This document shows positions 32,975-35,088 of a stretch of DNA of 64,000 bases, one piece after another (position 1 is the first letter of the stretch; every line of letters begins with the position of its first letter). The stretch comes from Octopus vulgaris. Taxonomy: Eukaryota. Where the stretch lies: contig OX597840.1 of the NCBI GenBank assembly GCA_951406725.2, forward strand, positions 31,310,001 to 31,374,000, in the 5' to 3' direction. Position numbers and translations under genes: made by a program. The notes under the pieces are model-generated. The model was not told the origin of the DNA. It worked only from the letters and a program-made list of their open reading frames with translations, and ran no database searches.

Positions 32975-35088
32975 GAAATTCCAATGAAAAAGGCATTATG
33001 GAGTTTCGTCTTACCTCTGGAAGATTTTCGAACGAAATATTAATCAGCGCCGTCCTGAAAGTGTATATAAAGACCAAAGGCAAAAGGCGAAAACGTCGGA
33101 TCATTTTGCATGTATGTGAGAAAAACAAAGATGGGACCTTCGATGAGTTTGCGACTGTGCGATTAAGAATAAAACAAAAAGGTTGGCAAGAAATTAATTT
33201 GCCGTTTTACTTGTTGAAAAAACTGAAACAAGAACCAATTAAGTTGCATGTGGAATGTGAAAAGTGCAATAAAAAAGTACGCTTGATTCTGCCTAAACGC
33301 AGAAAATCGAACAAACCGAAGAAAATGCGTGCATTGGTTCCTAATGGTAAACGTTCTCCCATGATAGTAATCAATACACGCGAAAATTTGAAGCATCCCT
33401 TCCGCAAAAGGAACCGACGGGACATCACATTGCCAGCTGAACTCAATGGTACATTTGATGAAGAAGAGGATATTGTCGATGGTTATGATAACGTGTATAG
33501 GGTGAAATCAATTAAAGAAGAAAATAGAGCCAATGGTAGTCGGAGCTATACGGTGCGAATGGAAAGCAGAGAAGAGGAAGAAGAAGATAACGACAATGAT
33601 AACGATGGTGAGGATGATGAAGAAAGAGCATCGGGAAGAACGCATGATATGGATGTACAAGGTGGTGGCGGCGACGGTGGCAACGCAGACATCAATAGCG
33701 GCGGCGTCGGTGGTGGTTTCGGAGGAGACGGTAGACAACGAGACCTTAACCGATGGGAACACGACTACGTTGATAGTGGTGGTGGTGGTGGTGGTGGTGG
33801 CGGTGGTGGTGGCGGCGGTGAAAGAAACCTCGAAGTTATAAGTGAAGATGGTCGCCACTCGTCACCGTCCGAATCGTCGGAGGGAGCGGTCTATAATGGC
33901 GATGGTGCTGAACGCCAGTGCTGTTTGACTTCACGTTTCATCTCCTTCCGAAGCATAGGCTTACAACATTTGGTCGCGGAGCCGGACTCCGGTTTTGTAA
34001 GTAGCCAATGCTCCGAAGTCTGCCCTGGATCTTCTGTGCCTGTTAAGGGCAGAAAAGGAAAGCCTCTCTCACGAACTACCGTGCAGAACAAAATGCAACC
34101 TCCTAATGAAGGCAGCAGTAGTAGCAGTAGTAGCCGCAGTAGTGGTAATAGTAAAATAAATAATAGAGATGGTAGTAATGCTATTGGTTGTAATAGCAGT
34201 AGCAGTACTAATAATAACAATCATAGTAATAATAATATTAGAAATAATAATAATAATTGCAGTAGCATTAGTAGCAGTAATAATAATAATAATAATAATA
34301 ATAATAATAATAATAATAATAATAATAATAATAATAATAGTAATAATAATAATAATAATAATAATAATAATAATAATAAAAGTAATAATAATAATAATAA
34401 TAATAATAATAATAATAATAATAATAATAATAATAGTAATAATAGTAATAATAATAATAATAATAATAATAATAATAATGATAATAATAATAATAATAAG
34501 CATGCAGAAAGCAAGAGTCAGCATCAACAGCATCAACACAGTCATCATTATCCACAGCACCACCACCACCACCATCACCACCACAACCACAACAACCTCC
34601 ACCACCATCGGCACCCTCACTCCCAAAAGCAACAACAACAACAACAACAGCACTACCAACACAGCAATCACAACCACAATCACAAACACAACGTCAACAC
34701 CACCACCAACACCACCACCACCACCAACAACAACAACAACAAACACCACCACCTCTCTCCTTCCTCTTCTTCTTCTCCGCTGCCCTCACTTCCTTCAAAT
34801 CCTCATCGTGACCATATTCATTTTAAACCACAGGTACAAAGGGCAACTGACTCTATCCCTGCCCATACTTCATGTGCAAACGGCAGGGACTGTGAAAAAC
34901 ACACCACATCGCAAACACAGCCGAGAGCAGAGAAGTCGGCAACGGCAAGACCCGGGCACCACAAACGACCCATAAAATGTCGCCCAACTGCTTTCAAAAA
35001 TCTTACTATTGCTTTCATTACCGAAGATCTCGAAATTGAAAATATGACAATTCCAAATGTTATTGTGACGAAATGCGGTTGCAGATGA
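32975..35088 (+). CDS. Terminal coding exon of a divergent TGF-beta superfamily ligand (activin/inhibin-beta-like prodomain, furin site, split cystine-knot domain); upstream signal-peptide exon not located
   Basis: Strong acceptor (T10-ACAG, 32961-32974) opens in phase 1 into the 696-aa ORF frame. Prodomain motifs: SAVLKVYIK, GWQEINLP, LHVECEKC, PMIVINTR. RKRNRR at 33403-33420. Mature motifs: CCLTSRFISFRSIG..VAEP.SGF...CSEVC and KCRP...LTIAF.....I....IPNVIVTKCGCR-stop. Confidence 0.9.

Follow-up and report, generated by a model that had tools for sequence, protein, structure and literature searches.

The gene described here lies on the plus strand of the Octopus vulgaris contig C27 and is formed of two exons, which when spliced encode a precursor of ~865 amino acids (~865 codons). 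The window, by which we mean the whole 64-kb stretch of DNA analysed (G000:C27:31310001-31374000, in a genome of 2.8 Gb), contains coding exon 2, a single open frame at positions 32975 to 35088 made up of a prodomain arm, a furin site, a spacer, a split mature domain and a stop codon. It is preceded by a splice acceptor AG (32973 to 32974), which ends a phase-1 intron of 70,949 nt, while exon 1 lies outside the window and 71 kb upstream of exon 2 (G000:C27:31271542-31272025, plus strand). A search for exon 1 by homology and pattern in 233 kb gave no match and it was located by a read junction instead. Read contigs from four of four runs, belonging to four studies, start at 32975 directly after the AG and carry an identical loose end, which has a single genome position immediately 5' of a GTAAGT donor, 70,949 nt upstream. 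The contig joint thus spans the intron and demonstrates splicing; no run is on record as RNA, which was only guessed, and the evidence for expression is the splice junction itself. Contigs cover exon 2 at 32975-33765 and 33827-34187, with indels of 3 and 9 nt only, and the frame of exon 2 is open over 709 codons, the exon itself being a 704-codon open stretch. The intron also carries, at 29730-30280, a common interspersed repeat in three near-identical copies of ~180 nt, arranged head to tail and noted by eye.

In the part encoded by exon 1, a polar extension of 65 residues precedes a hydrophobic signal-like segment (residues 76-92, judged by hydropathy only); a Cys pair is also present, together with what is likely the first helix of the prodomain. 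This is followed in exon 2 by an activin-type prodomain arm (32975 to 33402), which has TGFb_propeptide features (score 0.96), contains a CxxC motif and is very basic, with 43 Lys and Arg in 148 residues and a pI of 11.1, although the prodomain alone gave no significant Pfam or PDB sequence match. As in other TGF-beta superfamily members, the prodomain is followed by a predicted furin site, RKRNRR (33403 to 33420), at which cleavage would be expected, and an equivalent basic site is present in eight aligned relatives as well as in P0001 (O. bimaculoides) and P0002 (a distant octopod-like relative). The mature chain then begins with an acidic, Gly-rich N-terminal extension of 165 residues (33421 to 33915), containing 43 Asp and Glu and no Cys. 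The public O. vulgaris model P0003 starts downstream of the signal-like segment and leaves exon 2 within this acidic spacer (33595 onward), omitting the whole mature domain.

The mature domain is split in two. Its finger-1 half (33919 to 34026, plus strand), recognised by sequence and Pfam, starts with a CC pair at 33919, followed by the Trp-less IGLQHLVAEP at 33955, with a one-residue insertion before Gly, and CSEVC at 34009. The finger-2 half (34972 to 35088, plus strand) contains IKCRP at 34972, without the interchain Cys, then LTIAF at 35002, IPNVIV at 35050, CGCR at 35074 and the stop codon at 35086-35088, the Ser88 and Leu90 sites being occupied by Thr and Ala, respectively. An earlier note on this DNA had pointed to the altered IKCRP, IGLQHLVAEP and CSEVC motifs, and all three indeed lie in exon 2 in one plus strand frame; the six knot cysteines that it described as kept also align with those of canonical ligands, giving the six-cysteine knot with two fingers typical of the TGF-beta superfamily. 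Its claim that the hydrophobic pattern of finger 2 is kept was right for the alternation of residues but not for the knuckle Leu, which we number as BMP2 L90 and which is replaced by Ala. The Pfam TGF_beta profile matches both halves (E-values of 0.003 and 4e-5), and the whole ORF, at 26.9 bits, falls just short of the cut-off of 27; among PDB sequences, the exon 2 protein matches activin B best. With 11 Cys, the processed chain has an odd number, and no upstream partner exists for the CC pair's second Cys, so a non-canonical interchain bond is possible and the monomer suggested in the earlier note is a candidate only.

Between the halves lies an in-frame, stop-free insert of 315 residues (34027 to 34971, plus strand), a low-complexity sequence of Asn, His, Ser and Gln with four Cys that is predicted to be disordered. 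It is located at the wrist, where a faint trace of activin wrist sequence aligns with its start, and splits the cystine knot, separating knot Cys3 from the next knot Cys by 318 residues, compared with 26-33 in nine aligned non-family ligands. Stop-free windows of 314 codons are rare elsewhere in the 64 kb (94 of 125,716). P0001 and P0002 likewise carry an open, in-frame insert, which in P0002 is a 169-residue loop with a sequence unlike that of the octopus.

In the AlphaFold model the two halves nonetheless join into two fingers with a pLDDT of 93-97 (95-96 for finger 1 over model residues 11-40, 93-97 for finger 2), while the insert has neither helix nor strand and mostly a pLDDT of <55, and the wrist helix is absent. 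This is in line with the earlier suggestion that features for type I receptor binding have been lost, the Trp pair being gone from the sequence and the wrist helix from the predicted model; the chiton orthologue model has only a four-residue wrist helix, in a low-confidence stretch. The top structural matches, myostatin, GDF15, TGF-beta2 and the mini-monomer 5TX2, are tied at Z-scores of 7.6-8.2, which show the fold only; for 5TX2, an engineered mini TGF-beta2 monomer, Z was 7.9 and the rmsd 2.5 over 77 aligned residues. Foldseek gave no match for the octopus model at E <0.001 because the insert splits the domain, and homodimer prediction with the mature chain scored 0.01, which gives no answer either way. 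The models predict a knot that folds around the insert and has no type I receptor site.

Searching 1.84 billion representatives with the prodomain yielded 17 proteins, of which the named members are molluscan: chiton and abalone proteins annotated as 'inhibin beta A chain-like', one protein from oyster, and proteins from abalone and limpet that consist of the prodomain only. We then compared individual residues in ten family rows and nine other ligands. The dimer Cys is present in none of the ten family ligands but in seven of the nine others, and by eye it is also missing in all three published scallop TGFb-10 sequences. Both Trp are kept in three of ten; orthologues with the pair are those of chiton and scallop, P0006 and P0009. 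Loss of the dimer Cys is thus family-wide, while loss of the Trp pair, which survives in three of the ten rows, was later and patchy. The knuckle Leu is found in 1/10 family ligands compared with 7/7 canonical ligands that have the dimer Cys, and the Ser88 site varies freely across the family (Lys and Ser occupy the Ser88 and Leu90 sites in P0002), which weakens the earlier proposal that the octopus protein could hold type II receptors; the role of this BMP2 site is described in the available part of PMC11239237. The Cys3-Cys5 loop spans 14-318 residues in the family and 26-33 elsewhere, and the knot Cys are kept in nine of ten. P0002, despite the same Trp loss and CRP motif, ends in CGYVW without the last knot Cys, which points to a knot under relaxed constraint or else to an erroneous gene model.

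The activin ancestry put forward in the earlier note held, since the family profile has pro-activin A as its best PDB match (E-value of 1e-31) across prodomain and mature domain, and pro-activin A is also the best fold match of the chiton AlphaFold model (E-value of 9e-16). Together with the activin-type prodomain, the closest similarity is to inhibin beta, and the best match of the chiton protein in the octopus genome is the octopus activin-like gene. On these sequence grounds the octopus gene is the orthologue of the mollusc 'activin/INHB-like' ligand, of which a scallop survey, in its accessible part, reports one gene per species, placed with activin/INHB (PMC10763453). By eye, the three scallop TGFb-10 sequences given there share the basic prodomain and likewise lack the dimer Cys; their wrist is short and both Trp are retained. 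The same part of the survey lists an 'INHA-like' gene in scallops, and no counterpart of this was seen among the octopus genome matches. A mature-domain tree (77 columns; 19 of 24 alignment rows, with five near-duplicates left out and bird GDF7 as the only vertebrate row) leaves the family clade unresolved but does not reject its monophyly (p-AU 0.48); with one of 16 branches starred the tree is weak, so the number of Trp losses cannot be counted.

Conservation follows the folded parts of the protein. Relative to P0001, which is 94% identical over the prodomain query, the folded parts are 92-96% identical (96% for the prodomain arm) and the spacers, including the acidic extension, 87%. For P0002 identity is 59% in the prodomain arm, 67% and 54% in the knot halves, 26% in the acidic extension and 23% in the insert. 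Conserved folded parts with divergent spacer and insert fit a functional gene. In run X12 there are seven changed codons, four silent and three not, which is too few for dN/dS.

Downstream by 770 kb, also on the plus strand, is a related prodomain-only gene, whose exons are at ~32.084 and 32.114 Mb of the same contig (L075, 2159+, and L030, 1381-1848). It likewise has two exons with the same intron phase, encodes a signal peptide and stops at the would-be furin site, and we detected no mature domain in 100 kb downstream using a profile that detects both halves in the activin-like gene. Similar prodomain-only proteins occur in abalone and limpet, and out of 200 bootstrap trees 88% separate these proteins from the prodomains of ligands (support 50/89), although the best match of the abalone protein in the octopus genome is the activin-like ligand gene and not the paralogue. 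By sequence the paralogue is likely to be orthologous to the gastropod prodomain-only proteins, and it is a candidate trans-acting inhibitor or chaperone. On another contig (G000:C9 ~39.22-39.23 Mb, minus strand) L086 and L028 are exons of a further TGF-beta-type prodomain gene, again with no mature domain in 180 kb downstream, and this is possibly a second prodomain-only gene.

Scanning the octopus genome with Pfam gave 14 matches among 21 candidates scored; the ligand counts are lower bounds. From sequence motifs and comparison by eye with the scallop set, we take the ligands to be BMP2/4, ADMP, Nodal, two BMP5-8, BMP9/10, BMP3 (in two exons), two myostatin-like, one Maverick/Panda-like, two AMH-like and the activin-like gene itself. 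No intact activin was found in the genome, and queries with two Trp-bearing orthologues added no ligand locus. The idea of an extra decoy beside a normal activin, which the earlier note implied, thus gives way to a gene that is the only activin-like ligand gene found, with a defect common to molluscs. A by-eye match to scallop TGFb-07 suggests that the Panda-like gene is a locus of its own, L004. Two loci that are AMH-like against the scallop set, L008 (C9 119.09 Mb) and L010 (C28 11.82 Mb), are also without the dimer Cys (FCVP, YCVP) and without one of the two Trp. On C23 (28.27-28.37 Mb) a BMP5-8-like gene is present twice in inverted orientation with identical last-exon protein (L005/L017 and L006/L016), reflecting either recent duplication or an assembly artefact. 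Searching the genome for Activin_recp gave no exon recognisable as a type II ectodomain, and two Activin_recp exons, L089 and L091 (C9 41.30 and 40.95 Mb), lie on one strand 350 kb apart, the latter of which we take to resemble the pseudoreceptor BAMBI.

As a candidate function, which we favour over the others though tentatively, the product may be a secreted, non-signalling antagonist of activin-branch ligands that resembles wrist-deleted activin. The analogy draws on the accessible parts of several sources: activin A without its wrist is no longer an agonist but antagonises weakly, its affinity for ActRIIB being reduced, and the evolution of inhibin alpha involved an N-terminal extension and wrist changes (PMC2832003); mmTGF-beta, from which the dimer Cys and heel helix are missing, inhibits competitively (bioRxiv 10.64898/2026.03.23.713733); and the Trp-less Panda antagonises Nodal (PMC11239237). 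The precursor would be secreted through the hydrophobic segment of exon 1 and cut at RKRNRR, the basic prodomain might hold the product on the heparan-sulphate matrix, and the product is predicted to fold as two TGF-beta fingers with neither a wrist helix nor a covalent dimer link. It could then damp intact ligands of the same genome, namely the two myostatin-like, the Maverick/Panda-like and Nodal, with a partner ligand or co-receptor as the candidate target, as has been proposed for Lefty, inhibin alpha and Panda. As the wrist, dimer Cys and Trp changes are all combined in the octopus protein, recruitment of a type I receptor is unlikely, and because the knuckle is eroded, binding of a ligand or co-receptor is likelier than high-affinity occupancy of a type II receptor. 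Against an antagonist, the scarcity of the knuckle Leu and the variability of the Ser88 site mean that no conserved binding surface points to its target, and if this is the sole activin orthologue then its lost agonism must be covered by other ligands.

It is rather unlikely, though far from negligible, that the protein still signals in an unusual manner, as a non-covalent or alternatively linked dimer, as the partner of another ligand in a heterodimer, or, in the manner of GDF15 and GDNF, through a receptor other than the type I/II pair. That no other activin-like ligand was found in the genome would fit such a role, as would finger halves that are conserved as much as the prodomain, the availability of a spare Cys, the trace of activin wrist at the start of the insert, the short helix in the chiton wrist and the tie of GDF15 among the top fold matches. 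Trp-bearing orthologues also exist, and by analogy with GDF9 and BMP15, which signal as non-covalent dimers, those of chiton and scallop, P0006 and P0009 could do the same. However, octopods combine changes in the Trp pair, the wrist helix, the dimer Cys and the knuckle Leu, and wrist deletion alone abolishes the agonism of activin A, according to the accessible part of PMC2832003.

We also consider it unlikely that the basic prodomain is the working part, acting in trans in the latency, folding or matrix tethering of other ligands, with the growth-factor part a slowly decaying passenger. All members have a conserved, very basic prodomain, prodomain-only secreted relatives exist 770 kb away and in abalone and limpet, receptor-contact residues drift freely and P0002 has lost the last knot Cys, yet between octopods the knot halves are conserved as much as the prodomain, nine of ten family ligands keep the knot Cys, and the fingers are predicted to fold with high confidence. 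That most of the insert is an intron or alternatively spliced, leaving a short mature domain, is very improbable: the insert is microsatellite-like in a repeat-rich genome, there is an acceptor-like site at 34833, and read support stops at 34187, with the 3' part and a long AAT repeat lying outside contig coverage, but contigs of all four runs read without a joint through 33997, the sole strong donor-like site near the insert, as far as 34187, use of that donor would delete CSEVC, the frame has no stop over 314 codons, P0001, P0002 and P0017 also carry open inserts, and a shorter domain would restore neither the Cys nor the Trp pair. Finally, decay into a pseudogene, to which the loss of several canonical residues and expanded repeats in the coding sequence might point, can be practically dismissed, given the spliced transcripts, the 704-codon open exon with its two small in-frame indel sizes, the near identity of the folded parts with O. 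bimaculoides and the orthologues across molluscs.

Judged by its sequence, the octopus protein is an activin-descended TGF-beta ligand that fits none of the canonical agonist, Lefty and inhibin alpha patterns. A broader proposal, which we regard as doubtful, is that molluscs turned their activin-beta orthologue into a monomeric non-signalling inhibitor before the split of chitons and shelled molluscs, and that the two genes, this one and the prodomain-only paralogue, were kept as a joint brake on signalling by Nodal and myostatin. If true, the family would stand in functionally, in protostomes, for Lefty and inhibin and would be nature's counterpart of the engineered mini-monomer TGF-beta, with the octopus as an extreme case that carries a 315-residue disordered loop inside the knot. 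The predicted octopus fold itself indicates that a loop of 300 residues can be accommodated by a cystine knot. The losses in the family are stepwise (dimer Cys, then wrist, then Trp) and affect the same sites as in inhibin alpha evolution, and mollusc genes annotated 'activin / inhibin beta' may not be agonists. Molluscs use Nodal for left-right asymmetry, and a conserved, type-I-incompetent activin derivative is a candidate feedback inhibitor; as far as the accessible part of PMC7535936 goes, earlier Lefty searches in Lophotrochozoa were negative and its own analysis finds the Lefty orthogroup to be bilaterian-specific. Full-text searches turned up no report of the octopus insert, of the prodomain-only paralogue or of a Cys loss throughout the mollusc family; Kenny et al. 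2014, which treats the TGF-beta ligands of lophotrochozoans, may bear on this novelty.

Compared with known systems, scallop TGFb-10 (PMC10763453), chiton P0023 and abalone P0015 share with the octopus protein a basic CxxC prodomain, the CC start, the absence of the dimer Cys and an altered wrist; the scallop and chiton proteins keep both Trp and short wrists, to which the octopus adds its acidic extension and insert, and the accessible part of the scallop paper holds no remark on the missing dimer Cys. Vertebrate activin A/B (inhibin beta) is the best sequence and fold match for prodomain and mature domain, but the octopus protein is without the interchain Cys and WxxW of a canonical activin agonist, without its wrist helix (a predicted loss) and without the first of its nine Cys, while at the type II knuckle Thr is kept and Leu is replaced by Ala. 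As in the octopus protein, the dimer Cys is removed in mmTGF-beta2 (PDB 5TX2) and its heel helix is a loop, although this monomer was engineered for tight type II binding, whereas the type II surface of the octopus protein is eroded. Lefty has no wrist helix, and differs in its prodomain from the activin-type prodomain of the octopus. It shares the absence of the interchain Cys (PMC4564238, in part), but has Pro at the BMP2 Ser88 site and a beta6-beta7 loop of 8-12 residues (PMC11239237, in part), where the octopus protein has Thr and no insertion relative to BMP2/4, and the relationship to Lefty raised in the earlier note founders on these two features. In sea urchin Panda and Drosophila Maverick both Trp are replaced by hydrophobic residues, as in the octopus, and antagonism has been shown for Panda; unlike the octopus protein, however, Panda has retained its dimer Cys and relies on a Pro in the knuckle, as far as the accessible accounts go.

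Vertebrate inhibin alpha keeps the dimer Cys, which is the seventh of its seven-Cys pattern and forms the interchain bond, and acts as a covalent heterodimer, whereas the octopus protein lacks the interchain Cys and retains the CC pair. By the criteria in the accessible part of PMC2832003, the two share an N-terminal extension and a wrist helix that is lost or replaced. For the lancelet alpha-like and sea urchin Myostatin-like C proteins, absence of the dimer Cys is reported in PMC11239237, while PMC2832003 counts nine Cys for the lancelet protein, each source in its accessible part; in both proteins the same two hot spots are changed as in the octopus, with an N-terminal extension (acidic in lancelet) and a loss of or insertion in the wrist.
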